IMG/VR virus record: IMGVR_UViG_3300020112_002303
Span: 1 to 64,000 of that record
Direction: 5' to 3' (one strand)
DNA length: 64,000 nt
From: a virus
Lineage: Duplodnaviria; Caudoviricetes
A program made the translations under genes and the position numbers. The notes beneath the pieces are model-generated. The model was not told where the DNA came from and ran no database searches. It saw only the letters and a program-made list of their open reading frames with translations. Of this stretch, positions 16,342 to 45,328 are shown one piece after another; position 1 is the first letter of the stretch; every line of letters starts with the position of its first letter.

Positions 16342-16359
16342 GTTTTATATCTTATACGA
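16342..16359 (-). promoter_or_regulatory. candidate phage-specific promoter/operator, copy 1
   Basis: TCGTATAAGATATAAAAC, 17/18 identical to 39041-39058. Confidence 0.5.
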
Positions 16360-18720: not shown

Positions 18721-20349
18721 TTGCACTTGAAACAGAATACGATTAAAATAAAACCCTCCGAGTTTGCGGAGTTGGTTTTCAATCTTGATGGTGCACCATT
18801 TAGACTTGGACCTCGTAGATATCTGTTACCTATTTATGATGCCGATATAGAAGAGGGTATAATAATGTCAGGCAGACAGGTAGAAAAATCTACCACAAAT
18901 GCAACTAAAATGGGGACGCATACATTAATGCAAAAAAACTTTAAAGCATTATATGTTGCTCCTCAAAATGCTCAAGTTAAAGAATTTTCTCGTGAACGAA
19001 TCGGAAAATTCTATGATTTTAGTCAAAATGACATTGTAAATAAAGAATACAGAAACACTAGGTATGATTTAAACAATGTTTCCATGAAGCAGTTTTCTAA
19101 AGTTAATTCAATAAATTATTTTAGACATTGTTACGAAATGGGCGATAACATTCGTGGTATAACTGCCAACGGTATATGGTTTGACGAAGTTCAAGACATA
19201 AATGTTGATGCTATCCCGGTAGTAAAAGAATGCCAAGCTCACGCTCTCGATACTGGTTCGAGAACGAGGGTAACATGGTATACTGGAACGCCGAAAACAT
19301 TCAGCAACACAATACAACAATATTACGAAAGAAGTACTCAAAATGAATGGGTAATAAAATGTGAACATTGTGGAACACAGCAAATCTTAGGCGTAAAAAA
19401 TCTTACACCAACAAAATTCATCTGCAGAAAATGCGGCATGGAATTAACAAAAGAAATGATAGCAAATGGCAGATGGTATAGTTTAGCGCCTAATAATGCC
19501 ATTCAGGGATTTAGAATTTCTCAGATGATGGTTCCATGGTCTCAACCAAAAGATTTATGGGCAAAATATGAAACTTATTCTAAGGGCAAGTTTTATAACG
19601 AGGTTCTTGGAAGAAGCTACGAAGACGCTCAAAAACCATTAAATATGCCGTTGCTATTATCTATATGCGATAATGACTTTATTCTTTCAGAAGCACTACC
19701 CCCGGAATACAACAACAGGAAGACCTATATGGGTGTAGACTGGGGTACAGGAGGAAAGTCATATACGATAGCAGAGGTTTATGGTGAAGATCAGTATGGT
19801 AATTTAAGATTGTTATTCGCCAAAAAATTTGCCATTGGAGATGAAACCGAGCCGGATTACCAGGTTCAATATATATCACAGCTTATGCATATATTTAGGG
19901 TAAATAAATGCGTTCTCGACTGGGGTTTCGGTTTTGTTCAAAATAAAGATCTTGTAAGAATGTTCGGAAAAAGAATGGAAATCTGTTATTATTCAGCATC
20001 TCAAAATAAAGCAAGAAAATATAACGTAGATAAGGGATTTTGGACTGTAAATAGAACAGAAATGATATCAACCTACTTAAAAGATATAAAAGAGCACAGA
20101 ATTATTTGGCCGGGAAGAAGCAAAGACCAAATAGACTTTATGTTCGATCATCATTTGGCAGAATTGTCAGAATACAGAAAGTCATTAAATGGAAAATCGG
20201 AAGAATTATTTTATTTTCATTCCGAATCCACTCCAGATGACGCACTTCATGCCGGGGTTTATGCAAAATTAGCATGTATACTTGATAGGGAAAGTACAAA
20301 TAATTCATATAGTTTTTCCGGTGTTTACATGCCAAATGAAGATTTTTAA
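18721..20349 (+). CDS. terL: terminase large subunit (gpA-like)
   Basis: GRQVEKST Walker A, WFDE Walker B, TGTP, CxxC..CxxC, GVDWG and DDALHA nuclease motifs. Confidence 0.9.
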   Translation: MHLKQNTIKIKPSEFAELVFNLDGAPFRLGPRRYLLPIYDADIEEGIIMSGRQVEKSTTNATKMGTHTLMQKNFKALYVAPQNAQVKEFSRERIGKFYDFSQNDIVNKEYRNTRYDLNNVSMKQFSKVNSINYFRHCYEMGDNIRGITANGIWFDEVQDINVDAIPVVKECQAHALDTGSRTRVTWYTGTPKTFSNTIQQYYERSTQNEWVIKCEHCGTQQILGVKNLTPTKFICRKCGMELTKEMIANGRWYSLAPNNAIQGFRISQMMVPWSQPKDLWAKYETYSKGKFYNEVLGRSYEDAQKPLNMPLLLSICDNDFILSEALPPEYNNRKTYMGVDWGTGGKSYTIAEVYGEDQYGNLRLLFAKKFAIGDETEPDYQVQYISQLMHIFRVNKCVLDWGFGFVQNKDLVRMFGKRMEICYYSASQNKARKYNVDKGFWTVNRTEMISTYLKDIKEHRIIWPGRSKDQIDFMFDHHLAELSEYRKSLNGKSEELFYFHSESTPDDALHAGVYAKLACILDRESTNNSYSFSGVYMPNEDF

Positions 20350-21584: not shown

Positions 21585-22169
21585 ATGAGTAAGTATAATG
21601 AACTTATTGAAAAGTGGGCAGAGGAAATGGTTGATGAAGCAGATGTTGCTGATGTTGACAATATTTCCGAAGACGAAGAAATGACCGCAGCAGAAGCAGC
21701 TGAAATTCTCGGCGAAGAATATGAAAATGTTTCCGATGTTATGGATCAAGCTCTTGCAGCCATGAAGGAAGCAGAAGAATATTTTGATGCCGCTGAAGAA
21801 GTAAGCAAGGAAGCAGAAGAGCAGTATGAAGCAGCTCAAGAGTATCTTGAGGATGCTGAAAAGAGAGCTTGTGCTTGCGAAGAAGTTTGCGATGCTATTG
21901 ATGAAGAAGGTCTTGATATCGAGGCCGACGAAGTTTCTGCTTATCTCGAAAAGACAGCATCTGTTTACAGTTCTGCATCAGAAGATATGGATACTTCATT
22001 GTCAATGATGAAGGAAGCTTCTGATAATTTTGATTCAGCAGAATCAGTAAAAGAGGCAGCTATTGAGCAGTACAACGAAGCAATGGAAATTCTTGAGAGT
22101 GCTGAAAAGTACGCTTGCGAATTAGAAGCTGCAGCAGAAGAATTATACGACTCTGTATCTGAAGAGTAA
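21585..22169 (+). CDS. very acidic coiled-coil protein, putative scaffold/core
   Basis: E/D/A-rich, internal duplication, many KxA sites, own promoter and terminator. Confidence 0.65.
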   Translation: MSKYNELIEKWAEEMVDEADVADVDNISEDEEMTAAEAAEILGEEYENVSDVMDQALAAMKEAEEYFDAAEEVSKEAEEQYEAAQEYLEDAEKRACACEEVCDAIDEEGLDIEADEVSAYLEKTASVYSSASEDMDTSLSMMKEASDNFDSAESVKEAAIEQYNEAMEILESAEKYACELEAAAEELYDSVSEE

Positions 22170-25661: not shown

Positions 25662-27668
25662 ATGGATAACAAAAACAATGAAACATCTCTCGGTAAAGAC
25701 GTATCCGAATTAGGAGTATATACTCTTGGAAGTGATGAGGAAATAAAGAATGCGTCCGTTGATGAAGAAATGATTAACAAGGTTCTTGCAGCCAAAAAAG
25801 CATCCGTTGGGAATGCTATAGATGTTTCCGAATTAGAAAAAACAGCAGGTTTTGACGATAGCGGTATGTATGCCGGAACAATGGGTGTAAGAGGATCAGT
25901 ACAATCACCATATCCGTCACCGTTCCTCACTTTATCAGATTTAAAAATACCTAATTCTGCAACAGAAATATTCCAATGGTGCAAATATACATTTATGTTC
26001 GACCCACTTATTAGCGGTGCCATAAATGCATTGTCGACATTCCCTGTCACAGAAATATCGTTGGAAGATAAGAATACGGAAAAGTCTGAAAATGGAGATA
26101 AAACTAAAGACTCAGATACATTAAAGCTATATAATCGAGTATTATTTGAAAATCTCAATATTTATAAGATATTAGTTGATATCGGTATTGATTATTGGTT
26201 ATTTGGAAACTGTTTTATTTTCGGCGAATTATATACAAACCCCAACACAAAGCAAATAGAATGGAAGCGTATTACTCGTCTTGCGCCAGATAAAATGACT
26301 ATAGACTATAATCCGTCAACAGGAAATAAAACTTATCGTTGGACTGTTCCGGAAAGAATAAAACAAATAGTTCTTAATAAAAAACCGTTCGAAGAATATG
26401 AGCGTATACCAGATGCAATAAAAATCGCCGTAAGAGAAAGAAAAACTATCGTTTTAAATCCGGAGAACATATATCACTTCTCTCGTCCTTCGAACTCGAC
26501 AGGAAATGATACCGGATGGGGCACACCGGTAGTGGCAAATGTGCTTAAACTTATTATGTATAGAAATGTGCTAAGACAAGCACAGGAAGCTATTGCTCGT
26601 GAACACATAGTTCCTTTCAGGGCCTTTTATCTGAATCCTTCTCAAAATGCTAACCCGAATACTGACTGGGCTAACGTGGCAAAGAATTTCGCAGCAGAAC
26701 TTATGAAATCTGTTCGTGACCCTAACTACAAGTCGGTATCGCCTTTCCCGATAGGTATGGTTGAAGCTGGAGGAAACGGAAGAGCTCTTATGCTTACTTC
26801 TGAGATTGAACAAGTTCAAAATGAAATTCTTGCAGGAATGAACGTTCCAAGAGAATTTATTTTTGGTGGCGTAGGATATTCGGGCGGAAGTATAGCCTTA
26901 AAGATTCTTGAAAATAACTTTGCGACTTACAGATTGTTCCTTACTGACTTTATCAAAAATTTCCTGATAAAAGGAATGGCTAAAGCAAGAGGAGAGTGGT
27001 TAAGCGAAAAAGATGATGAAAATTTAATTACCGTAAGATTTTCTGACCTTAAAATGATGGATGATACTCAGAAAAAACAAATGGTAATAAATCTTAATCA
27101 AGCAGGCAAGGTAAGTGATGACCATCTTTGGCAGGAACTCGGAATAAATCCAGAGAAGATGAGAAAAATGCTTAAAGATGAACAGGTATCAAGAGTAAAA
27201 AATGAGCTTGAAATGCAAAAAGAACAATATAAGGCATCGCTTGATTTAAAGGTTTATCAAGCAAAATTATTCGAGGAATATGCGAAAAAATATCCTGATA
27301 TTTTTGGAGAACAAAACCCTGACATGACTAACCCGGAAATTCAACAAGATCAACAGGGTGATACACAACAACCACAACAAGCAGAAGAACAGCAACCTGT
27401 TGCTGAAGGTAATGCTCAAGATAATGTCGAACAAGAAAATCCGATACAATTATCGAGCGATGAATTGAATGTTGCGAATCAAATAAAAAATCTCAATAAA
27501 AATGAACAAGCAATTGTGTTTAACAAATTACCGAAACAGATTGCCCAAAAAATAATGGCATATCTTGAAGCAGAAAAAAATGCTCAAAAACAAGAAGATA
27601 AAACCAAAACGGATATGACTCCGTTACCTCTTCAAAAACCTCCTCGTAGAGAACAATTAAACGGATAG
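25662..27668 (+). CDS. portal protein
   Basis: DPLISGAI, DYWLFGNCF, NIYHF, GWGTP, LRQAQEAIA, EILAGMNVP; position in head operon. Confidence 0.8.
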   Translation: MDNKNNETSLGKDVSELGVYTLGSDEEIKNASVDEEMINKVLAAKKASVGNAIDVSELEKTAGFDDSGMYAGTMGVRGSVQSPYPSPFLTLSDLKIPNSATEIFQWCKYTFMFDPLISGAINALSTFPVTEISLEDKNTEKSENGDKTKDSDTLKLYNRVLFENLNIYKILVDIGIDYWLFGNCFIFGELYTNPNTKQIEWKRITRLAPDKMTIDYNPSTGNKTYRWTVPERIKQIVLNKKPFEEYERIPDAIKIAVRERKTIVLNPENIYHFSRPSNSTGNDTGWGTPVVANVLKLIMYRNVLRQAQEAIAREHIVPFRAFYLNPSQNANPNTDWANVAKNFAAELMKSVRDPNYKSVSPFPIGMVEAGGNGRALMLTSEIEQVQNEILAGMNVPREFIFGGVGYSGGSIALKILENNFATYRLFLTDFIKNFLIKGMAKARGEWLSEKDDENLITVRFSDLKMMDDTQKKQMVINLNQAGKVSDDHLWQELGINPEKMRKMLKDEQVSRVKNELEMQKEQYKASLDLKVYQAKLFEEYAKKYPDIFGEQNPDMTNPEIQQDQQGDTQQPQQAEEQQPVAEGNAQDNVEQENPIQLSSDELNVANQIKNLNKNEQAIVFNKLPKQIAQKIMAYLEAEKNAQKQEDKTKTDMTPLPLQKPPRREQLNG

Positions 27669-27676
27669 GTGATCAT

Positions 27677-27922
27677 ATGGACCAAGAAAAACAATATTAT
27701 TGTGAGACTCTCGTCTTCCCTGGGGACGAAAAAAATCTTGCGTATATTTACAACAATTTTTGCGAGGACATATATAAAGAAATGAAATCCCCAAGCAAAA
27801 CATTGTTAATACTTACAATAATGTTTAAATGTTTTCCTGAAGAATACGAAGAATATTTAAAAGAATGTCCCCATAAAACAACAGATGAAAAGGTAGGAAA
27901 TAATGATGACTTTGAATTCTAA
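27677..27922 (+). CDS. hypothetical protein coupled to RNAP gene
   Basis: AGGTGA RBS, overlaps RNAP start. Confidence 0.6.
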   Translation: MDQEKQYYCETLVFPGDEKNLAYIYNNFCEDIYKEMKSPSKTLLILTIMFKCFPEEYEEYLKECPHKTTDEKVGNNDDFEF

Positions 27923-30900
27923 AACAACAGAATTAAAGAATAGAATACTCGACTTCTTTAAAAAACAACCGGTAATAAAATCTGACAGCGGATATTCTGC
28001 AAAAATATCCGACATTAAAATAGATATACCGAAGGGTGCAACAGATTTATCGGAGCAAATGAAAATAAAATATAAGTCAGAAAGTCTTGAGGGTAAGGTT
28101 AAGGGCGTTTTAACGATTTATGATCCGTCAGGAAGCGTACTGAGTAAAAGCGCATCGATGATGTTGTTAAAATTTCCGTTATTTACCGATAGAAGCACAA
28201 TAATATCGAATGGTTCGGAAAAGTTTATTCAAAATCAAATCAGAACTAAGCCAGGCGTATACACAACAAAAGGTAACTCTGCCGGTGTTGCAAGAACGGA
28301 AATTAAATTTCCAAGAATATCCGGCGGAACAAGAACAATGCCTTCTTTTAATATAGTTGCTAATTCTGATAAAAAAACATTTGTTGTTGAAATTAAGGGT
28401 TCTGGGAAAACACTAAACGTCAATGTTGTTAACTTCATGAGAGAATTAGGGTTTTCCGACCAAGAAATTGCAAGCAGTCTCGGTAACGGTTCTTATAGTG
28501 ATTATCTTTTTAAAAGAGCAAATTCTAATTACAAATCTATTTTCGACATTCATCGTGTTATTGTGGGTGGAACACAAAACAATTTAACGCCCGATGCTGC
28601 AAGGTCTCAAGTAATAGATTTCTTGGAAAACAATTCTTCGTTTGAATCCGGTCAATCTGTTGTTCAAAAAAATCTTGGCGTATCAGCAAGTAAGGCAAAG
28701 TTTTTGTCGAGAGATGTTATCTCTAAAGCAGTAGAAAAAACTATGGCAGTAGAGATGGGAGATAAGCCCGAAGATGAAAGAGATGACATTAGGAATGCAG
28801 ATATTCTTTCGGATATAGATTTAATCATCGAAAATATATCCGGTGATTACAAAGAATTCGAAAAAAATGCGAAAGCAGAGCTTGATAATTATAGAAATTT
28901 AAATCAAAATTCTGCCAAGAGCTTCAAATCGATTCTTAATTTAGGAAATAATCTTAACGGATTTTTAACACAGTCATCTGTTGTTCATACTGTTTCAGAG
29001 GGGTCTAATCCTGTAGCAGTAGAATCTAACCAAAGAGAAATCACTCAATTTGGTGATAAGTATGCTCCCACAACACTCAAATCGGGCAATAATAACGATG
29101 ATATTGGTACGGCGGGAAAAAGAGTTCTGACACTATCAGAGTTCAATAAAATAGACCCTGTTGAAGTTCCGGAAAACGCTAAATTAGGATTAGTCCAACA
29201 TTTAGCACAAGGTGCCAAAGTAAAAAACAAAACTGTTTACATTGATGTTTACAAAGTTTCTGGTAAATATGTAAAAACTGATTCAAGTAATAAAAAGACT
29301 ATCTCTGTTGACGATGAGTATAATAGCAAAATAGCATTTTATGACAAAAAATATATCACTGTTGACAGTAAAAAAGGCGAACTTCGTTTTAATGGTCCAA
29401 GAGCACTTGCAAGATATAAAGGGAAAGTTGACGAAATGCTCGTTAGCGATATTCAGTATATCGATGTAAACGCATCAAATACTCTTGGAACAACTGCTAA
29501 TTTGGTTCCTTTTGTGTCGCACGATGATGGTGCAAGAATAATAATGGCTACATCTCAGCAAAAACAAGCCGTTGTATTAAAGAATAGAGAAGAACCGGTT
29601 GTTTCTATGTTGTATGATCCTAAAACAAAAGAAACTTATGAAGAAAAAATGGGTAAAGATTATGGAAAGCCCGTAATTTGTGATGTTAACGGAAAAGTAA
29701 CATCTATATCCGATAGTAAAATTAAAGTTAAAGATTCTGCAGGAAAAGTGTATATCTACCAATACTACAACCATTACCCTTTTAATGGTTCATATATAAA
29801 TAACGAATTAAAAGTGTCTGTTGGCGACGAAGTAAAGAAAGGACAAATGTTAGCTGAAGGATGGCAAACAAAAAACGGCAAACTTGCTATCGGATTAAAT
29901 GCGAATGTAATGTTCCTTCCGTATAAAGGATATAATTACGAAGACGGCATAGTAATATCTCAAAGTTTGGCTAAAAGAATGTCATCAGAAGAAACAACAG
30001 AATACGAAATTAATATTCCGTCCGACTGCAAGGGTGGTAGAGGTAGCGGTATATTAAAAGAGGTATCTATTTATTCTTCGGACCCCGATTTACATTTACT
30101 TGATAGAGACGGTATAGTTAAAGAAGGTACTTATGTAAAATCAGGAAGTCTTATAGCCGCTTTCCTTTCTCCTGTTGACACATCTAACGCTTCTGTTTTT
30201 GATCTCGTTAAATCTATGGATAAAAACAGCAAATATGTAGAAAAATTAAAACGAATAGACAGCAACAGTTACATCGAAGGTAAAATTGTTCGAATCGTCG
30301 TTTTAAATAATCCTGACAAAATAACTAAACAGAGAATAGTGTTTACTATTTCAACCGATAAGCCACTTAAAGTGGGAGATAAGTTATCGGGTCGTCACGG
30401 AAACAAAGGTACTGTTACAAAAATTCTTCCTGATGAACAAATGCCGTTTTCGGAAGATAATGTTAGAGCAGACGTTTTACTTTCCCCTCTTGGCGTTCCT
30501 TCCCGTAAAAATGTCGGTCAGGTACTTGAAGTAGGCGCAGGTTTAATTAAACGCAAAACCGGTAAAGACAGAGTTATTGAAAACTTTGACTCGTCAGAAA
30601 AAGACAAACTTCTTAAAGATATGGAAGCAGCAGGTCTTGGTGACGGAAGAATGAAAGTTTATGTTCCGGAAGTTGATAAAAACGGAAAAATTGTAAATGT
30701 TCCCACTGAGGCAAAAGTCGATGTAGGCAGCATGTACATGATTAAACTTAAACACAAGGTTGACGATAAGGCTCAGGCAAGAAGTAACCTCGAAACATCC
30801 CTTTCTCAAAAAAATTATATGCCAAGCAAAAGAGTTGGTATGGCTCAAGGCGAAAAAAGAAACCCTCAAGCTCTCGGAGAAATGGAATTCAAATCTCTAA

Positions 30901-33900
30901 TAGGTCACGGCGCCGTCTGGAATGCGTTAGAATCGTCCACATTGAAGTCTGATGGCGGAGGCAATATAACGAATAGGTTAGCAATATTTAACGCCTTAAA
31001 GGGGCAAAAAATCAATCCTGACGAGCTTGATTTTGCAGCCACACCAGAAAGCTTTAAATTATTTGCTGACAATCTTAAGGCATTAGGTCTTGTTGTAAAG
31101 CCACAATACAATGGGAAAGATGTAAAATCGTTTGATGACGCTTATGATAGCCTTGCTCTTGTTCCACTAAAGACAAAAGATTTTGTTAAACTTGTAGGCA
31201 AGGACAAAAAAGTAACATCATCGAATATTTATAATGCTAAAAATATTAAGAGTGGAAATGCTAAGGGACTCGAGGGTGGTTTATATGATCCTAAGATTTT
31301 TGGCGATAATTCTGAACCCGACAACAATAGAAATAAATGGGGCTATATAGAATTATCTTCCCCTGTTGCAAATCCTATTTTCGCTGACAGAACAGACAGT
31401 AGCAATATCTATGCTCTTGTTACCAACATGAAAGCATCTGATATTAAGGCTATTTCAGAAGGCAAAAAGGTAATTGTTGAATCGCCTGAAACTTTTGAAG
31501 GATTTAAAAAGATGAACGCTGAAGAGCGCAAGGAAAATATCAAAAAATCCCTTGAAGCTATGTCCGAATTAGGAGTAAAAGCAGGAGATCTTGTAGATCC
31601 TAAGATTCTCGAAAAGTATTTAGAAAAAGGTGTAATAATTCCGTTCTCTGCAGGAGGAAAAGCAATATATTCAGCTCTTGAAAAAGTTGATATAAAGAAG
31701 GAATTAAAGAAAGCACAAAAATCACTTGACTCTGCAAAAGGAGCAAACATAGACAAAAACTATAAACGGGTTAAAGCATTGTCTAATTTAGTTAAAAATA
31801 ATTTTAAGGCAACAGACTTAATGCTGACAGCAATTCCTGTAACACCGACACATATTCGTCCTGTTATAGTTAACGAAAAAGATAATACCTTTATCAATAG
31901 CGATTTAAATGTTCTTTATTCAAATCTTATTGTAGCAAATAAATATTCTGTTCCAAACGCAAGCAATACCGATAGTATTATTCTTCCTCCAAGTGAAACG
32001 GCAAGAAGATCGGCAAATTTGTATAACTCGGTTGCACAGTTAATGGGTAAAAAGAAAGCATTAACACTAAAGGGAAAAACCTCTGATGTAAAAGGCATTC
32101 TCGATACTCTTGGCGGAAAGGGAGGCGTTGTACGAAATAATCTTCTAAGAAAAAGAATTGATTTTTCAGGAAGATCTGTTATCGGCGTAGACCCCAACCT
32201 AACTATTGACGAAGTTGCATTACCTATGGACTTAGCTAAATATGTATATAAACCTTTCTTAGTAAAGGAACTTGTTCGTTCTGGAGCAGCAGGAAATGAC
32301 CGTCAAGCACTTAAGATGATAGATAAGTCTGACCCAGAAATAAAGAAAGCATTAACAAATATAGCTAATGATAGACCTATCCTTATTGGTAGACAGCCAA
32401 GTTTGCATAAATATGGATTACAAGCATTTAAACCGGTTATAAAAGATACTGAGGATGGATCAGTCGTAAGAAGCATTCATTTGAATCCGTTGGTAACAAA
32501 AGGGTTTAATGCCGACTTCGACGGAGACACAATGTATATAACAACACCTATCACTGATAAGGCAAAAGAAGAAGCCAAAAAACTTATGATGCCAAGTCAA
32601 ACAATGATGAATCCTACAGACGGAAAAATGGTTGTAGGTATATCGGCAGAAATGCTTGCAGGACTATACTTAATATCTGTTGGCAAGCCAAAAGGAAAAG
32701 TTAAAACATATAGCACATATAAATCCCTATATGATGATTATTTTTCCGGTAAAGTTAATTCTGACAGTGCGGTTAAAACACCGTTGTCACCGAACACTAT
32801 TTCCGCAGGTCAAGCACTTATTAACTGGTGTATTCCAGATAAAGTTAAATCAAAGAATCGTCAATTTACAAGTATTTGGGGAAAAAGTGAAATTACCGGA
32901 CTGATGACGAATCTGTACAGAATAGGCGAAGCAAGCGAATGGAAAACAATATCTATGACGGAGGTCGCAGAGGTTCTTGATAAATTAAAAGATTTAGGAT
33001 TTAAGGCATCTACAAGAGCCGGATTATCTATTTCCACATCCGATTTTATGGGTGTTAGCGGAATCGAAGATATGTATAACAGACGCCTTAAAGAGACAAA
33101 GAAGACATACGGAAATATGGACGCAGCTCAAATAAAAGCATGGCAGTCTGTTGAAAGCGATATAGAAAAACAAATAGCGGAAGGTAAATTACTTTCGAAG
33201 GATAATAATCTTAATATTATGATGCGTTCGGGAGCCAAAGGTAACAAAGGTCAAATTAAGAAGATGGTTGCGACTGTTGGTGTATTTGCTGACATAAAAA
33301 ATAATTTAAGTCAGCCTGTCAAATCTTCTTTCTTCAATGGTTTGTCACCACAAGAATATTTCAATCAAGGTAACGAAGCAAGAAAGGGTATTTTTGATAG
33401 GTCTGTTTCTGTAGTAGCGCCCGGAACATTATCAAGAGAGATGTGGCATGCCGCACAAGATGTTATTATTTCTGAAAAAGATTGCAAAACAAACGAATAC
33501 ATCACTATGTTAAAGACCGACCCCAATATAAGAGGCAGATATTGTGCCGCTAATGTTAGATCTTCTAAGAAAAAGATTATTTGCAAGAAAGGTCAAATCA
33601 TAGATGATGCAGTAATTAATGCAATGGCTAAAGACGATAGTATCGAAGGCGTAAAAGTCAGATCTCCGATGAGATGTAAAACTGTAAACGGATGTTGTGT
33701 AAAATGTTATGGTTGTTTGCCGGGCACATTAACACCTGTAACCGTAGGAACACCTGTAGGAACTCTTGCAACACAAGCACTTGGTGAACCTGTTACTCAG
33801 ATGACAATGAAAACATTCCATACCGGAGGTGCAGATTCGAGCGCAACATTGGGATTACAAAGAGTTCAAGACATATTAAACCTTTCCGACATCAAGAACA

Positions 33901-34865
33901 ATAAAGCGGTTCTGGCTGTCGAAAACGGAGTAGTATCGAAAATTGACGAATCCACCAATAAAACAATTGTAACAATCGGCTCTAAAAAATACACAATTAA
34001 ATCTAATTCTGACGGCTCGAATAAGGTATTAAGAGTTAAGATAGGTGATGTTGTACGAAAAGGCGATATGATTACTCTTGGAACACCGTCAGATATATCT
34101 AAATCGCTATCGAACAAAAAAGACAATGCACAACTTACCTTCGCTAATCCAAGACAAATGTTTGATATGAAAAAACAGGAACTTGGAGGAAAAGAAGCAG
34201 TTAAGGATATTCAAGACTATTTGTCAAAGAGCATGGAATATGCTTTCGGCAAAACGGTAGGTAATGATGCCATGAATTCTAAGCATACTGAAATAATGGT
34301 TGGAAAAATGACATCAAATGTAAAAATTCTTGATCCGGGCAATTCAGATTATTTAAAAGGTCAAGTCGTCAATCGTAACGAAGCAGAAAAATATAATCAA
34401 TCCATTAAAAACGGAGCCGGTAAAAAGAAACTCGGAATAACCAATGTAAACGGGATATTAAATCATCCGTCCGCAAAAACTTATAAGTTTAAGAACCAAG
34501 TTGTTGTTAAGGCCGGACAACCGATAACAAAAACGGATATTTCTAAATTAAAATCATTAAGGGTTAAAAATATAGAAGTATTACCTAAGCCGGTTGTTTA
34601 TGACGAAATGATAATGTCAAAGAACACTGTTCCTTATGCTGGACATGATAACTGGCTAAGCAATGTTGGTTACGAAAACATCAATTCCGGTCTTGCTTCT
34701 GGGGCAGCGTTTGGTCAGGTAGACAAAATTGATAGTCCGAAAACAAGACTTATGACGGGAAAAATCATGAACGTTGGCGAAGGATTTAATGCTGATAAGT
34801 CGACCGTTTCAGGATTCGGAAGAAAAATGTACAATTTCTTCGCTAAACCCCGAAAGAAAAAGTAA
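27903..34865 (+). CDS. phage DNA-directed RNA polymerase, fused beta+beta' single chain
   Basis: beta: NGSEK, HDDGAR, GYNYED, GDKLSGRHGNKG, GVPSR, KLKHKVDDK, GEME; beta': DFSGRSVI, RQPSLH, NADFDGD, SGAKG, GEPVTQMTMKTFHTGG. Confidence 0.95.
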   Translation: MMTLNSKTTELKNRILDFFKKQPVIKSDSGYSAKISDIKIDIPKGATDLSEQMKIKYKSESLEGKVKGVLTIYDPSGSVLSKSASMMLLKFPLFTDRSTIISNGSEKFIQNQIRTKPGVYTTKGNSAGVARTEIKFPRISGGTRTMPSFNIVANSDKKTFVVEIKGSGKTLNVNVVNFMRELGFSDQEIASSLGNGSYSDYLFKRANSNYKSIFDIHRVIVGGTQNNLTPDAARSQVIDFLENNSSFESGQSVVQKNLGVSASKAKFLSRDVISKAVEKTMAVEMGDKPEDERDDIRNADILSDIDLIIENISGDYKEFEKNAKAELDNYRNLNQNSAKSFKSILNLGNNLNGFLTQSSVVHTVSEGSNPVAVESNQREITQFGDKYAPTTLKSGNNNDDIGTAGKRVLTLSEFNKIDPVEVPENAKLGLVQHLAQGAKVKNKTVYIDVYKVSGKYVKTDSSNKKTISVDDEYNSKIAFYDKKYITVDSKKGELRFNGPRALARYKGKVDEMLVSDIQYIDVNASNTLGTTANLVPFVSHDDGARIIMATSQQKQAVVLKNREEPVVSMLYDPKTKETYEEKMGKDYGKPVICDVNGKVTSISDSKIKVKDSAGKVYIYQYYNHYPFNGSYINNELKVSVGDEVKKGQMLAEGWQTKNGKLAIGLNANVMFLPYKGYNYEDGIVISQSLAKRMSSEETTEYEINIPSDCKGGRGSGILKEVSIYSSDPDLHLLDRDGIVKEGTYVKSGSLIAAFLSPVDTSNASVFDLVKSMDKNSKYVEKLKRIDSNSYIEGKIVRIVVLNNPDKITKQRIVFTISTDKPLKVGDKLSGRHGNKGTVTKILPDEQMPFSEDNVRADVLLSPLGVPSRKNVGQVLEVGAGLIKRKTGKDRVIENFDSSEKDKLLKDMEAAGLGDGRMKVYVPEVDKNGKIVNVPTEAKVDVGSMYMIKLKHKVDDKAQARSNLETSLSQKNYMPSKRVGMAQGEKRNPQALGEMEFKSLIGHGAVWNALESSTLKSDGGGNITNRLAIFNALKGQKINPDELDFAATPESFKLFADNLKALGLVVKPQYNGKDVKSFDDAYDSLALVPLKTKDFVKLVGKDKKVTSSNIYNAKNIKSGNAKGLEGGLYDPKIFGDNSEPDNNRNKWGYIELSSPVANPIFADRTDSSNIYALVTNMKASDIKAISEGKKVIVESPETFEGFKKMNAEERKENIKKSLEAMSELGVKAGDLVDPKILEKYLEKGVIIPFSAGGKAIYSALEKVDIKKELKKAQKSLDSAKGANIDKNYKRVKALSNLVKNNFKATDLMLTAIPVTPTHIRPVIVNEKDNTFINSDLNVLYSNLIVANKYSVPNASNTDSIILPPSETARRSANLYNSVAQLMGKKKALTLKGKTSDVKGILDTLGGKGGVVRNNLLRKRIDFSGRSVIGVDPNLTIDEVALPMDLAKYVYKPFLVKELVRSGAAGNDRQALKMIDKSDPEIKKALTNIANDRPILIGRQPSLHKYGLQAFKPVIKDTEDGSVVRSIHLNPLVTKGFNADFDGDTMYITTPITDKAKEEAKKLMMPSQTMMNPTDGKMVVGISAEMLAGLYLISVGKPKGKVKTYSTYKSLYDDYFSGKVNSDSAVKTPLSPNTISAGQALINWCIPDKVKSKNRQFTSIWGKSEITGLMTNLYRIGEASEWKTISMTEVAEVLDKLKDLGFKASTRAGLSISTSDFMGVSGIEDMYNRRLKETKKTYGNMDAAQIKAWQSVESDIEKQIAEGKLLSKDNNLNIMMRSGAKGNKGQIKKMVATVGVFADIKNNLSQPVKSSFFNGLSPQEYFNQGNEARKGIFDRSVSVVAPGTLSREMWHAAQDVIISEKDCKTNEYITMLKTDPNIRGRYCAANVRSSKKKIICKKGQIIDDAVINAMAKDDSIEGVKVRSPMRCKTVNGCCVKCYGCLPGTLTPVTVGTPVGTLATQALGEPVTQMTMKTFHTGGADSSATLGLQRVQDILNLSDIKNNKAVLAVENGVVSKIDESTNKTIVTIGSKKYTIKSNSDGSNKVLRVKIGDVVRKGDMITLGTPSDISKSLSNKKDNAQLTFANPRQMFDMKKQELGGKEAVKDIQDYLSKSMEYAFGKTVGNDAMNSKHTEIMVGKMTSNVKILDPGNSDYLKGQVVNRNEAEKYNQSIKNGAGKKKLGITNVNGILNHPSAKTYKFKNQVVVKAGQPITKTDISKLKSLRVKNIEVLPKPVVYDEMIMSKNTVPYAGHDNWLSNVGYENINSGLASGAAFGQVDKIDSPKTRLMTGKIMNVGEGFNADKSTVSGFGRKMYNFFAKPRKKK

Positions 34866-34868
34866 TAC

Positions 34869-34897
34869 TTGACACAGTAAGTATTCAATACTATAAT
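34869..34897 (+). promoter_or_regulatory. consensus SigA promoter
   Basis: TTGACA-17-TATAAT; AATACTT/AAGTATT inverted repeat overlaps -35. Confidence 0.85.
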
Positions 34898-34922
34898 ATA
34901 AAGCAAGGCGGTGAGCATTACA

Positions 34923-35198
34923 ATGAACACAGAACCAGGCACCGAAATTACAGAGAAAAGTCCAAATAAAATGAACACTAGTGCTGTAATTCTTCAAGAG
35001 ATGATTCAAAAAGCAAGAGAAAATCTCATAAGCATACAGTACGAGATATCTTTTAAGGAAAAGTTACAAGAAGACAGTCGCTTTTCTCTTGATTTAAATC
35101 CAGTCACAATCAACGATTTAAAGAAACAAGAGGAATATTGGCTCGAAAGACTCCGGTTCTTTAAAGCCAAAAGAGACGAAAAGATTAAGCCTTTATAG
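34923..35198 (+). CDS. hypothetical coiled-coil protein
   Basis: GGCGGTGA RBS, own promoter. Confidence 0.65.
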   Translation: MNTEPGTEITEKSPNKMNTSAVILQEMIQKARENLISIQYEISFKEKLQEDSRFSLDLNPVTINDLKKQEEYWLERLRFFKAKRDEKIKPL

Positions 35199-35280
35199 GT
35201 AAAACCTATCCGTGAGCTGTGGTACAGGCGCACCGTTTTTCAGGGCCAAGAAAAAATGTAAGGATAGTTTTTATATGCGC

Positions 35281-35312
35281 AAAAAAATCACGGGGGCAAC
35301 CCCGTGGTTTTT
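35281..35312. terminator. bidirectional terminator
   Basis: A7-TCACGGGG-GCAA-CCCCGTGG-T tract. Confidence 0.9.
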
Positions 35313-35686
35313 TATTTTTTGGTATATTCGCCTTGTATTATACTGTTATCATTAGATGACAACCATTTTGCCACTATATGTCTATGACAAAAATCGTCAC
35401 TTTTCTCATAGCAAACAAGAGCAATATCATTGTCGTTACTTAGCAATTTTAAATCGTTGATTACATCTCCGTATTTTAAATTAGAAAGTACCTGTTTTTG
35501 GAAGCTTTCTTCAAACATATTTTTATTGCCATTTGTTTTATATAAAGACAATATATTTGCTGTTGGGGAAAGTTTTTTATAAACTAATCCCTTATAAAAT
35601 TTAGGTGTATATAATGCGATAGATATAGGAATAATATTTTCTGGAAGTTTTCTTAATTTTGCATAATAGCTGGTATATATTTTCAT
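35312..35686 (-). CDS. DUF488-family protein
   Basis: IYTSY..., LSP, ALVCYEK..FCHRH. Confidence 0.8.
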   Translation of the reverse strand: MKIYTSYYAKLRKLPENIIPISIALYTPKFYKGLVYKKLSPTANILSLYKTNGNKNMFEESFQKQVLSNLKYGDVINDLKLLSNDNDIALVCYEKSDDFCHRHIVAKWLSSNDNSIIQGEYTKK

Positions 35687-39011: not shown

Positions 39012-39044
39012 AAACAGAAATGCACGAAAGGTACATTTCTGTTT
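39012..39044 (-). other. stem-loop in HU leader (terminator or 5' stabiliser)
   Basis: AAACAGAAATGTAC-CTTTC-GTGCATTTCTGTTT on minus strand. Confidence 0.6.
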
Positions 39045-39058
39045 TATAGCTTATACGA
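39041..39058 (-). promoter_or_regulatory. candidate phage-specific promoter/operator, copy 2
   Basis: TCGTATAAGCTATAAAAC. Confidence 0.5.
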
Positions 39059-39547: not shown

Positions 39548-39723
39548 TGTTCGTTACCTTCTTTTGTTAATTTATTGTTATACAAAGAATATCACATAAT
39601 TCTATTTATGTAAAGATATTTTTTAAAACTAACCTTATTTCATTGATTTTTTAAAATATGCTTTATTTTTTTGATAATAGATGTTATACTATAATCAACA
39701 AAATTTGTAAGGAGGGTTCTATT

Positions 39724-42048
39724 TTGTCATTTTGTAAAACAACTTCTTTTGAATTGAACGGAGATAACACAGAAGTTCTAACAGGCGAATTAAATAAAAC
39801 TGCTTCGTTTTCTTTGCCTGATGGATTCGTGTATGATCCTGAATATCTTTATTTAAAAGTAAGAGCTGTTAGTGGTGGAGAATACTGGGGTTGCAATAAG
39901 AATTACGATTATTTTCCTTGGGAAGAATTAAAAGCTCAAGCCAATACTTTCTTGTCCGCTCATGTATTTAAAAATCATGAAAACAAAAAGATTGAAGATG
40001 CTATCGGCGATATACTTTCAGTTATAGTTAACGATGAAATGAAATGTGTAGAGCTGATAATCAGAATCAGCAAAAGCGTTGCACCATCAATAACTAAAGG
40101 GTTTGAAAAAGGATTCATGACCGATGTTAGTATGGGATGCAGAGTAAAATATTCTGTTTGTTCAATTTGCGGAAACAAAGCAAAAACTAAGGTTGATTTT
40201 TGTGACCACATTAAATACGAACGTGGCCGAATCTATGATGACGGAAGACAAGTTTACGAAATAAATGTTGAGCCAAAATTTCACGATATATCTGCCGTTC
40301 TTAACGGTGCAGAAAAATCGGCAAAAGTATTAGACCTTAAACTTGAAACTTCGGATAATGTTAAAATTGATAGACCTATCACATCTATTAAAGTTGCTTG
40401 TGAGAATCAAAATGCTCTTGAAAAAGTTGCATCAGAAACTCCAATAAAGAGATTTACTTCTCCATTTTATTCTCCCGATATTGAAATGGAACATTTTATA
40501 GACAAGGAAGCACATTTAAATAAAATTTCCGAAATATCAAAGAGATTGGATGGAAAAGTTATTTCCTCATCTATTTCTGAATACAGGGATGATTTAGAAA
40601 AAAGATTGGGTAATATTGTTCCTCAACTTAAAATGCTATATGAAGATTTTCTTGATGAAAGATCCTGTGTTGATATAGGAAGAAAACTTCAGCGAATAGC
40701 CGACGAAAATCATTTAACAGAAAATGCTGTGTTCGGAAAATTCCTCGAATGCGCAGATTATTGTTCGATAGAATTTTCACCGCTTGAAATTTCACTGATA
40801 TTCAAATCTCTTATAGGTAAAAAAGTCAGCGAACAAAATCCTGCTCCTGAAATTCCGCAAAATCTTGATTCCGCGTACTCGGAGAATATTCCGTCAGGCG
40901 TCACCTGCACCAAAGTTCTTCGAGCTATTCCGAGAATGCAAACCTCATTACCCGCACTATCAAATAGTTCAAATCCTGGAACTGCGGCAAAGATTATTAT
41001 AATGAAAAGAATTTCAGGCACGCCGAAAGACGATGGTGTCGACACAGTTCGGAATATTTCTCCGATACTTGATATCCTTCGTCCTCTTATGGAAAGTCGT
41101 AGTATGCAAGCACAGTTCTTAGGGCCTCGTCTTACGAAGATGGCTTCTGAAAAGAGGAAACCAAATTTTGCAAGAGCTTCTAAGCATTTTGCTCCCATTC
41201 TGAAACTCAACAATCCTATATTTAAAACGGCTTCTGATATTGAAGATTTTGTAACAGGATATGCTTGGGCTGCTTACGAAAAAGAAAGAGAAGTAAGAGC
41301 GATGTCAAACAACTTTGACAGTAACGCAGAAAAAATCGCTTGCTTAATGGATGATGAATGCTTATCAAAACAAGCATCAGCTTTTACAAAATCATTAACT
41401 ATTGGTGTTCCTGCCGCATATGCTTATTCTGCTTGGCAAAGAGCAAGAATGAGAAACGGCAAGAAAGTATCGAGTATAAACAGAGCTATTGCAGAGAATC
41501 CTGATGGAACAGCCATGACTCAATTTTTAGCCGTAAACGGCGCCGCTAAATTTTTAAATAAAAATAAAACAGGTCAAGCAATAAAGAGTGGTGCAACCGG
41601 TATCGGTCGTGCGGTAAAAAGCGGAATAACTAACAATAAAATCGTAAAAGGCATTACAAATAAGATTCCAAAAGTTGCATTTGAAAAAAATATTATTGAA
41701 AATTCGTCTTTGGTATTGAATAATTCTGATATTGACGATATAATGATAAAAGAGGGTTATACTATTGACGATGTCAAGGCTATTAAAGCAAGTATTGTTT
41801 TCAACGAACTCAAAAAGGACGATTTAGCTGGAGATGTTTTGAAAAAAGCATCGTTAAATGAGGAAGATGTTAAAAATTACTTGCATTCCGCCAAAGACTT
41901 TGTTAAAATAAACCTTGAGAAAAATGCTCAACTTATATCTGATATGTCCTGCGGTAAATTAGGAGATGGAGATATGTTGGATATTGGAATGTTATCGAAA
42001 CTATACGATATTAAAAAAACATTTTTCAAAAAACCGAAAGGAGAATAA
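39724..42048 (+). CDS. prohead protease (assemblin/HK97-like fold) with long KxA-rich extension
   Basis: N.N.D.F, FKNH, VSMGC, CSICGN..CDH, F.DISAV; upstream of scaffolds and MCP; TTG start after GGAGG. Confidence 0.75.
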   Translation: MSFCKTTSFELNGDNTEVLTGELNKTASFSLPDGFVYDPEYLYLKVRAVSGGEYWGCNKNYDYFPWEELKAQANTFLSAHVFKNHENKKIEDAIGDILSVIVNDEMKCVELIIRISKSVAPSITKGFEKGFMTDVSMGCRVKYSVCSICGNKAKTKVDFCDHIKYERGRIYDDGRQVYEINVEPKFHDISAVLNGAEKSAKVLDLKLETSDNVKIDRPITSIKVACENQNALEKVASETPIKRFTSPFYSPDIEMEHFIDKEAHLNKISEISKRLDGKVISSSISEYRDDLEKRLGNIVPQLKMLYEDFLDERSCVDIGRKLQRIADENHLTENAVFGKFLECADYCSIEFSPLEISLIFKSLIGKKVSEQNPAPEIPQNLDSAYSENIPSGVTCTKVLRAIPRMQTSLPALSNSSNPGTAAKIIIMKRISGTPKDDGVDTVRNISPILDILRPLMESRSMQAQFLGPRLTKMASEKRKPNFARASKHFAPILKLNNPIFKTASDIEDFVTGYAWAAYEKEREVRAMSNNFDSNAEKIACLMDDECLSKQASAFTKSLTIGVPAAYAYSAWQRARMRNGKKVSSINRAIAENPDGTAMTQFLAVNGAAKFLNKNKTGQAIKSGATGIGRAVKSGITNNKIVKGITNKIPKVAFEKNIIENSSLVLNNSDIDDIMIKEGYTIDDVKAIKASIVFNELKKDDLAGDVLKKASLNEEDVKNYLHSAKDFVKINLEKNAQLISDMSCGKLGDGDMLDIGMLSKLYDIKKTFFKKPKGE

Positions 42049-44232: not shown

Positions 44233-44263
44233 ATAATATTTATTAGAAAGGAACGTGTCCAAT

Positions 44264-45328
44264 ATGGCAAATACAAGAATTAAGACAGCTTCAGAGACTG
44301 TCAGCGCAGATTACAATATCGCAAGAATGCTTGAAGAGCCCGATGGTTTTAACAAGATCGCTCTTGAAAAGCTTCCCCCATTCATTCGTGAACTTCGTGA
44401 TTATGAGGCTTTCGGTAGAAAGATTCTTATGACTCACAATGTTTCTTCTGAAGACCTTCACCTCATTGATGGTGAACCTTATGTTTACTATCCGAAGGAT
44501 CAAAATGCTCATGCGGCATTCTTCGGTGATGATGCAGAGACTCCTCGTTACCAAGTTGAAGGCGACGGCGTTAATGTTGGTATTATGACCATCATTTCCG
44601 ACAACCACACCATTCATCTTAAGAGATTGATGGTTCAAAAGTATCAATATCTTGAGCGTGTTCGTGAGCTTTCTGCTCAATCTATGGTTAAGGCTGAAGA
44701 CCTTAAGATTATTGAACTTACCGAGCGTTTGCTCATGGGTAACGGCGGCGACGGTGCTACCGGCCACTCAGCTCCTGCTAATGCTGGCCAAATCGCAACA
44801 ACTACATCTACCGTACTCCAAAAGAATGATCTTATCGGTCTTATGCAAAAGATTTCTCAGAACGACATCCCTGTTGGTGCTTTCGTAATGAACCAAGCTA
44901 CTATCCAAGACACTCTTAAGTGGGGCTTTGGTACTACCGGTTCTGATATCGACCAGCTCACACAGAGAGAGATGCTCGAAACCGGCGTTAAGTATAAGTT
45001 CTGGAATATCCCGATGGTTACATCTCGTATTATCCCAAGAACTCTCGTATACTGCTATGCTGACAAGGAATTTGTTGGCCGTATGCCAATCCTTAAGGAC
45101 TTGACCGTTGAACTCACCAATACTTCTACTCGTCTTGAAAAGGGTTTGTTTATGTATGAGTTCGTAGGTATGTACCTTGCTTCTCAAAAGGCAGTTGCAA
45201 AACTTATCATCGGCTTTACTGACGGCGACAAGAAGATTCACCTTACTAGCGATGCTGAAGGTGTTTATGCTCGTGAAATGGAAATTATCAAAGACATCAA
45301 GGGTTACGGCTCTCGCGAAGGTCGCTAA
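44264..45328 (+). CDS. major capsid protein (HK97 fold)
   Basis: about 354 aa, strongly biased codon usage, LRDYEAFGRK, KAEDLKII, FVMN, IPMVTSRIIP; followed by terminator. Confidence 0.85.
   Translation: MANTRIKTASETVSADYNIARMLEEPDGFNKIALEKLPPFIRELRDYEAFGRKILMTHNVSSEDLHLIDGEPYVYYPKDQNAHAAFFGDDAETPRYQVEGDGVNVGIMTIISDNHTIHLKRLMVQKYQYLERVRELSAQSMVKAEDLKIIELTERLLMGNGGDGATGHSAPANAGQIATTTSTVLQKNDLIGLMQKISQNDIPVGAFVMNQATIQDTLKWGFGTTGSDIDQLTQREMLETGVKYKFWNIPMVTSRIIPRTLVYCYADKEFVGRMPILKDLTVELTNTSTRLEKGLFMYEFVGMYLASQKAVAKLIIGFTDGDKKIHLTSDAEGVYAREMEIIKDIKGYGSREGR

Follow-up and report, generated by a model that had tools for sequence, protein, structure and literature searches.

What kind of RNA polymerase (RNAP) does a tailed phage carry when a single gene among its head genes encodes what look like both large subunits of the bacterial enzyme, and how might such an enzyme be assembled, started and used? 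The question is raised by a locus in the IMG/VR virus record IMGVR_UViG_3300020112_002303 (Duplodnaviria; Caudoviricetes), of which we analyzed positions 1 to 64,000; this stretch of 64,000 nucleotides (nt) is called the window below. On its plus strand, at 27903–34865, an open reading frame (ORF) of 2320 codons without a stop encodes a protein, P0001, in which a beta subunit is followed directly by beta'. A first-pass annotation made from the sequence alone had taken it for a minimised single-chain polymerase, with no recognizable sigma in the window and with a fusion that removes the need for alpha. The single-chain bacterial-type enzyme within a phage head module stands, as does a place in a deep-branching phage lineage; the sigma-less reading and the word minimised do not, and the missing alpha can be accounted for without the fusion.

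A complete catalytic core in one open reading frame

The polymerase gene contains the following features.

27903..34865, plus strand: fused beta-beta' RNA polymerase ORF (P0001), 2320 amino acids (aa); uninterrupted frame, Pfam Rpb2 then Rpb1 domains
27903..31112, plus strand: beta module, residues 1–1070; alignment to B. subtilis and cyanobacterial beta
28971..29057, plus strand: equivalent of rifampicin cluster I, residues 357–385, with seven substitutions; MAFFT alignment with E. coli beta
30390..30410, plus strand: beta active-site motif GRHGNKG, residues 830–836; alignment
31113..31127, plus strand: beta/beta' junction, a linker of about five residues (GKDVK); alignments to beta and beta'
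31128..34865, plus strand: beta' module, residues 1076–2320; Pfam Rpb1_1 to Rpb1_5 and PDB beta' chains
31305..31337, plus strand: position at which the beta' zinc ribbon is missing, taken up by the loop DNSEPDNNRNK (residues 1135–1145) with IFG before it and WGYIEL after it; gap in the alignment
31893..32048, plus strand: clamp-helices (coiled-coil) region, retained but divergent; aligns to E. coli beta' 260–309, with an insertion at the tip
32508..32528, plus strand: catalytic NADFDGD, residues 1536–1542; alignment
33483..33707, plus strand: second beta' zinc site, retained (C1861, C1925, C1932, C1935); alignment with E. coli C814/C888/C895/C898

Seven Pfam beta and beta' domains of P0001 passed their cut-offs, and an eighth, Rpb2_3, was a weak match below its own. 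On the beta side, Rpb2_3, Rpb2_6 (2.5e-58) and Rpb2_7 (5.7e-08) covered residues 394–1066; on the beta' side, Rpb1_1 to Rpb1_5 followed in order over residues 1104–2155. Among solved structures in the PDB, the best matches were to bacterial chains, at E 1e-108 for beta' and E 1e-74 for beta. Both double-psi barrels are kept: the beta barrel with its conserved lysine motif, and the beta' barrel with NADFDGD, a bridge helix (about residues 1812–1856, upstream of the second zinc site) and a trigger loop (residues 1961–1977, downstream of that site) that has no SI3 insert. The beta flap, whose tip is divergent in the alignment, and the C-terminal region of beta' are also present. Across a 48-member alignment the beta motif was kept as G[RK]HGNKG, with K in two of the rows shown, and its H, G, N, K and G were invariant in 14 sequences; the beta' motif was kept as [NG]ADFDGD, with G for N in two of the rows shown and with three invariant aspartates. 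The open frame, the order of the Pfam domains and the alignments thus agree with the first description of this gene, in which all core motifs of beta and then of beta' lie in one 2320-aa ORF.

The N-terminus of P0001, TELKNRILDFFKKQP, aligns with the N-terminus of bacterial beta, so the polymerase carries no leader peptide. Residues 1–420 are divergent in sequence and gave no Pfam match. An AlphaFold model of this segment (predicted local distance difference test, pLDDT, 79) matched RNAP beta chains in Foldseek (best E 9e-16), among them a structure of just the B1/B2 lobes from M. tuberculosis; as modeled, the divergent first 420 residues fold as the normal B1/B2 lobes of beta. With these lobes in place, and with 2320 aa against the 2392 aa of B. 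subtilis beta plus beta' (1193 + 1199), calling the enzyme minimised overstates the case. The rifampicin pocket, in turn, proved as divergent as had been supposed. Relative to E. coli beta, seven positions of cluster I are substituted (Q513H, F514T, D516E, H526N, R529E, S531T and L533F), and because several of these are classical resistance sites, rifampicin insensitivity is a reasonable prediction from the alignment.

The alignment to B. subtilis beta ends with ..LGLVVKPQYN at residue 1070, and the beta' part starts at residue 1076 with SFDDAYDSL; its N-terminus, SFDDAYDSLALVPL, matches the bacterial F..IKIGLASP. This places the junction at residues 1070–1076 (nt 31112–31128), inside the span of 31090–31150 where it had been predicted, and an equally short junction occurs throughout the phage clade described below.

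In bacterial RNAP the zinc ribbon of beta' helps to form the channel through which RNA leaves and takes part in regulator contacts. In P0001, C70/C72/C85/C88 of E. coli beta' face a gap of about 27 residues, and no cysteine occurs between residues 710 and 1642, in agreement with the proposal that a short loop replaces the N-terminal zinc-binding domain. The ribbon was absent from every member of the phage clade that we examined and present in bacterial fused forms. The cysteines of the second zinc site are invariant in the phage RNAP family. The clamp-helices region is the expected docking site of sigma region 2.

The fusion is a family trait

A search of 5.8 billion proteins returned about 50 protein clusters of 2225–2339 aa that matched P0001 with full coverage at 35–54% identity, together with about 70 further fused clusters of about 2000–2170 aa at 25–28% identity. 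Fused relatives were also present at 24 IMG/VR loci, which were recovered with an alignment query; a single-protein query gave no relatives. Each of five complete relatives (152–174 kb, four of the five with terminal repeats) carries one RNAP ORF of 2244–2329 aa, with no stops. The beta-beta' fusion is therefore a trait of the family, and the tailed phages to which P0001 belongs form a large lineage, with complete genomes of about 150–190 kb.

In the window, the polymerase gene lies in a co-oriented block of head genes.

18721..20349, plus strand: terminase large subunit (TerL), start of the co-oriented head block; PHROG 3.7e-76, Pfam GpA_ATPase
25662..27668, plus strand: portal protein, immediately upstream of the small ORF and RNAP; PHROG portal 9.3e-18
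27677..27922, plus strand: small conserved ORF, 81 aa, overlapping the RNAP start by 20 nt; positional homologues in relatives
39658..42048, plus strand: prohead protease-like protein; PHROG head maturation protease (weak), conserved synteny
44255..45328, plus strand: major head protein; PHROG 2.5e-29

Relatives keep the succession of TerL, portal, small ORF and RNAP, and its portal, small ORF, RNAP part is found as far away as Salmonella phage Arash. After RNAP comes a divergent block with a RuvC-like gene, followed by the genes for the protease-like protein and the major head protein. In the majority of the closer loci, too, TerL, portal and RNAP precede a RuvC gene on the minus strand and then the protease, with other genes between. 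A portal homologue lies directly upstream of RNAP at 19 of 26 loci, including the closer ones, Arash and Vibrio phage D69. At two more it is upstream but several kb off, and the remaining five, all distant, gave no portal match.

Some fused phage RNAPs are longer, at 2400–3100 aa (P0028, P0038, P0054, P0060, P0088, P0099 and others), and carry Pfam domains of inteins or homing endonucleases (PF14528, PF14890 and PF05204), which suggests inteins inside the polymerase gene of these homologues.

Evolutionary origin of the polymerase

We built a tree from 63 sequences of beta and beta', concatenated or fused (1921 columns, FastTree, LG+gamma). In this tree, which is unrooted and holds no archaeal or eukaryotic sequences, so that deep branching is not separable from fast evolution, all phage sequences formed one clade apart from all sampled bacteria (support 1.0, branch length 0.88). 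The phylogeny of beta and beta' taken together agrees with a place in a deep-branching phage RNAP lineage, such as has been reported from metagenomes. Within the clade, group A (proteins of about 2.3 thousand residues, P0001 among them) and group B (shorter proteins, with Arash and D69) were each monophyletic with support 1.0.

Was the gene taken recently from a Firmicute host? We rejected this origin because P0001 is equally distant from Firmicutes (3.04 substitutions per site) and from other phyla (3.11), distances to be set against a bacteria-to-bacteria mean of 1.04. The best 80 matches among 185,579 species genomes were all 27–32% identical to P0001 and came from many phyla.

A broader doubt is that the ORF could be an artefact: a bacterial rpoB-rpoC pair might have been mis-assembled or have come in as contamination, or host genes captured recently might have been read through a sequencing error. 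This is a general possibility in metagenomic contigs, and nothing more speaks for it here. Phage genes flank the ORF, the GC content of the RNAP region is the same as that of the remaining contig, more than 100 independent clusters have the same fused length, and the phage clade is split from all bacteria with support 1.0; the artefact is effectively refuted.

From its sequence, the enzyme appears to be of the 'mReC' kind of deep-branching phage RNAP. The contig carries phage hallmark genes (TerL, portal and major head protein) along with beta and beta' containing NADxDGD, and the RNAP falls in a monophyletic phage clade outside the cellular lineages on the unrooted 63-taxon tree. A search of the mReC supplements for six related loci by IMG identifier gave no match.

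Comparison with known polymerases

Fused rpoBC genes are known from Helicobacter and Wolbachia, and P0001 shares with them a single ORF in which beta precedes beta'. The same order in one ORF is seen in the cellular fused RpoBC of a Paceibacterota metagenome-assembled genome (locus L038, 2281 aa) and in P0101. These cellular forms differ from P0001, which is neither nested in Bacteria nor endowed with the zinc ribbon: they branch inside Bacteria, keep the zinc-ribbon segment (one of its four cysteines is replaced in L038), come from genomes that encode alpha and omega, and go back to independent fusion events. The L038 gene (L038:172-7017, from Candidatus Paceibacterota, a candidate phyla radiation bacterium) branches with other Patescibacteria; because of this placement and the retained zinc-ribbon segment, its fusion is, on sequence grounds, independent of the phage fusion.

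The RNAPs of Salmonella phage Arash (gp206 + gp216, with sigma Gp10; OQ632216; PMC10585845) and of Vibrio phages D69, D148 and D181 fall in the same phage clade as P0001 (support 1.0). They share with it the order portal, small ORF, RNAP and a very short junction, have likewise lost the zinc ribbon, and possess a homologous sigma and no annotated alpha. The Arash-type enzyme differs in being only about 25% identical and in being split inside beta' (1525 + 606 aa), whereas P0001 is a single 2320-aa chain. Arash and D69 belong to the sister group B, whose enzymes measure 2000–2170 aa when fused, and the Arash sigma is without the LEKxA leader described below. In both of these group B isolates the split comes after about 550 beta' residues, roughly where cyanobacteria divide beta' into gamma and beta', and the beta/beta' junction stays fused.

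The mReC enzymes (Weinheimer & Aylward 2020, PMC7481178) resemble P0001 in coming from tailed-phage contigs, in having beta and beta' with NADxDGD and in forming one phage clade outside the cellular clades. The available portion of that paper mentions fusion into one chain only for crAss-like phages, and makes no mention of a partner sigma, a missing zinc ribbon, portal adjacency or virion packaging (PMC7481178).

The phiKZ and AR9 RNAPs are also phage two-barrel enzymes without alpha or omega, and one set of them is virion-packaged; they differ in consisting of 4–5 polypeptides, in forming two paralogous sets, in having no sigma-70-family factor and in being far more divergent from bacterial RNAP (PMC7824862, PMC13282480). 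That these enzymes are split, as the first-pass annotation had stated, is borne out by a review (PMC13282480), according to which they too lack alpha. P0001, by contrast, is one ORF, its complete relatives have one RNAP per genome, and a sigma is present. Single-chain two-barrel phage RNAPs, some of them virion-delivered, are represented by crAss-like gp66, YonO and the P23-45 RNAP fused to the tape measure protein. These enzymes have no detectable similarity to Pfam or COG models of beta and beta' (PMC7481178), against seven Pfam domains above their cut-offs and a PDB beta' match at 1e-108 in P0001.

The phage RNAP lineage and one virion proteome, that of Arash, had already been published, and the lineage is large and biochemically essentially unstudied. 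The window adds to it a low-GC subfamily of 2.3-thousand-residue enzymes. We found no description, in the literature searched, of the single-chain, zinc-ribbon-less, alpha-less and sigma-partnered design. A natural and widespread enzyme that combined bacterial-type catalysis with sigma dependence in one polypeptide, and did without alpha, omega and the zinc ribbon, would offer a minimal model of core assembly and sigma docking. It would also amount to an expression system of two genes, compact and probably insensitive to rifampicin. Should the enzyme travel in the virion, it would represent a fourth architecture of injected phage RNAP beside those of N4, phiKZ and crAss, and such an enzyme would explain how phages of about 150–190 kb become independent of host transcription.

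Partner subunits

In bacteria, an alpha dimer normally serves as the base on which RNAP is assembled. We found no Pfam match to alpha (PF01000, PF01193) or omega (PF01192) in this genome, and none to alpha (PF01000) in the five complete relatives, in which omega was not searched. Within the window no alpha, omega or sigma domain of Pfam rose above threshold, and to that extent the earlier report of no recognizable partner subunit was right; a sigma-70-family gene nevertheless lies just past the window end.

65187..66065 of the genome record: sigma-70-family factor, 1.2 kb beyond the window; family profile against the PDB

As a single sequence, the product of this gene gave no Pfam match and only an E of 0.11 against SigF. 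A language-model atlas labels the protein sigma-like, and an exhaustive HMMER search found 52 relatives. A profile built from 46 members of the family matched 61 solved chains, every one of which carries a sigma-factor annotation (best E 1.6e-14); the matches include SigA, SigF and RpoS chains and extend over profile positions 21–280, so that sigma-70 regions 2, 3 and 4 are detectable through the family profile. All five complete relatives have a homologue, one each, and Arash Gp10 is a homologue of the family as well (hhalign 97.6%, E 2.6e-12). With a sigma factor encoded in this genome and in each complete relative, the enzyme is not to be read as sigma-less. The protein has an N-terminal leader, ..YILEKIA, and a leader ending in ..L-E-K-x-A stands upstream of region 2 in about two thirds of the 46 members, and is a candidate targeting or cleavage signal. 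Another possible sigma, inside the window, was rejected: the ORF at 21585–22169 had a 15-bit match to Sigma70_r4 (21672–21770), and the Atlas models its product as a PcsB-like coiled coil.

The absence of alpha does not call for the fusion as its explanation, as the first reading had it, because the split Arash-type relatives and the phiKZ/AR9 enzymes are also without alpha. Does the single chain instead recruit a host alpha dimer, with omega and possibly with host sigma, in the manner of the Helicobacter fused RpoBC? Fused cellular RpoBC enzymes still use alpha. P0001 is also highly similar overall to bacterial beta and beta', at the E values given above, and retains the beta flap as well as the C-terminal part of beta'. 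Yet about 3 substitutions per site separate the protein from each of the bacteria sampled, and its family occurs in phages of very different hosts (Salmonella, Vibrio and low-GC hosts), so that docking to the alpha of each host would be hard to maintain. The flap tip and the clamp helices are divergent, and a dedicated phage sigma co-occurs in five of five relatives. We therefore regard such a hybrid enzyme as improbable, while some use of host alpha or omega by the phage core, as far as the sequence goes, stays conceivable.

Probable packaging in the virion

We wondered whether the position beside the portal reflects an enzyme that travels in the phage particle. Packaging of the RNAP in the virion is the best reading, and one to which we give somewhat better than even credence, because the portal–RNAP adjacency is deeply conserved, the sigma gene of Arash (Gp10) sits among structural genes, and there is one RNAP gene per genome. 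By analogy with Arash, a virion-packaged role is plausible. In the Arash virion proteome, Gp206 (beta plus the N-terminal part of beta') yielded 3516 spectra, the most of any protein, compared with 1333 for the major capsid protein, 1210 for Gp216 (the C-terminal part of beta') and 467 for the sigma Gp10 (PMC10585845).

Overall, we consider it fairly probable that the phage makes a complete single-chain core with its own sigma and no alpha or omega, and that this enzyme is packaged and injected. In this reading the ORF supplies, by itself and in full, the catalytic core of a bacterial-type RNAP encoded by the phage, with beta joined to beta' through the linker of about five residues; so short a link would be possible because the beta C-terminus and the beta' N-terminus are neighbors in the folded enzyme. 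No alpha dimer or omega would be needed, as the covalent link and lost or changed surfaces would replace alpha-assisted assembly. Initiation would use the phage's own sigma-70-family factor (genome 65187–66065), and the phage promoters recognized could be the GTATAAGNWATAAAA element, sigma-A-like TTGACA-17-TATAAT sites, or both. The gene would be expressed late, with the head genes, and its product packed in the capsid together with sigma. Once injected, the enzyme would start rifampicin-insensitive early transcription, and the same gene would supply the enzyme for later phases as well, since there is only one RNAP gene.

Several observations weigh against delivery in the virion or against full independence of the host. 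The RNAP has no LEKxA-type N-terminal leader of the kind that the phage sigma carries, so no loading signal is evident on it. The virion evidence comes from Arash proteomics, the present phage and its subfamily being known here as sequence, and the Arash RNAP is only about 25% identical. The authors of that study counted 116 virion proteins and caution that abundant non-structural enzymes may contaminate particles (PMC10585845). The genome record itself is only about 67% complete. Good sigma-A-type promoters also precede several genes, including a perfect (12/12) TTGACA-17-TATAAT at 34869–34897, 4 nt past the RNAP stop codon; by our estimate, chance would give the window about 0.15 such sites. 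Because of these promoters, host RNAP may perform part of the transcription programme.

Taken furthest, the promoters, the missing leader of putative cargo proteins and the carry-over warning favor an enzyme that is not in the virion at all. It would be made during infection for middle and late transcription only, host RNAP with sigma-A would read the early genes from the TTGACA-17-TATAAT promoters, and the adjacency to the portal would be a historical accident. That adjacency, however, is kept down to relatives of 25% identity, which argues for selection; the Arash RNAP outnumbers the major capsid protein in spectra, and a homologous sigma is in the Arash virion list with its gene among the structural genes. 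We judge an enzyme confined to the infected cell to be unlikely, though it deserves to be taken seriously.

Packaging of the RNAP could also take a more specific form, a two-protein machine in which the alpha- and omega-less single-chain core and its dedicated sigma are loaded into the capsid and injected. The LEKxA leader of sigma would serve as a signal for both capsid targeting and protease cleavage that brings in the untagged RNAP as holoenzyme, and the 81-aa ORF would aid loading or folding. We put this version forward as speculative and rather improbable.

Promoter-like elements

The window holds two copies of a promoter-like motif, CGTATAAGNWATAAAA, where 0.05 copies would be expected.

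39042..39057, minus strand: promoter-like motif CGTATAAGNWATAAAA; motif search
16343..16358, minus strand: second copy of CGTATAAGNWATAAAA; motif search

Six more copies lie elsewhere in the genome on the minus strand, at 64081, 64374, 64946, 87115, 87391 and 95737. The element has the form (T)CTCGTATAAGNWATAAAA, and several copies stand 10–20 nt upstream of a Shine-Dalgarno sequence; three sit among small genes clustered in tandem on the minus strand, just beyond the window end. The motif was found by inspection, as k-mer enrichment of upstream regions recovered mainly the Shine-Dalgarno AAAGGAG. It also occurs, mostly between genes, in the relatives L009, L010, L012, L014 and L023, whose RNAPs are 36–43% identical, once at the same inter-gene position. 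This distribution suggests a family-specific promoter.

The perfect sigma-A-type site opens a short plus-strand segment at 34869–35313, in which the promoter is followed by a small ORF (from ATG 34924 or GTG 34911 to 35198) and a strong terminator at 35282–35313. From these elements, the segment looks like a self-contained host-type transcription unit.

The small ORF and other features of the genome

The 81-aa ORF between portal and RNAP is kept in position across the whole phage clade and is duplicated in some relatives. Its positional homologues share the motif F.LPG.E...LN.P...KEG....YEE, in looser form in Arash gp205 and in D69, and AlphaFold gives the protein a b-a-b-b-a fold (pLDDT 79). 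We considered two roles for it. A trans-acting substitute for the zinc ribbon, suggested by its four cysteines, was rejected, as these are not conserved in the positional homologues. An alpha/RPB11-like or omega-like subunit, suggested by the b-a-b-b-a topology and a weak match to chain C of the African swine fever virus RNAP, was unsupported: a wide VIA-align search with the model gave only generic ferredoxin/ACT-like matches (top Z 6.7), with no RNAP subunit in the top 50. The function of the ORF may be linked to RNAP or to the portal.

The source record is linear, with 102,257 bp and a CheckV completeness of 67%. A megablast of the sequence against phage records gave no match, and neither Rfam families nor tRNA genes were detected when the window was scanned for them. 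Beyond the window, at 97683–101619 on the minus strand of the genome, the gene for DNA polymerase III alpha is split into two ORFs separated by a 292-nt gap, in which Rfam detected no group I intron. The split falls inside the Pfam domain DNA_pol3_alpha, one ORF matching profile positions 2–102 and the other 103–260.

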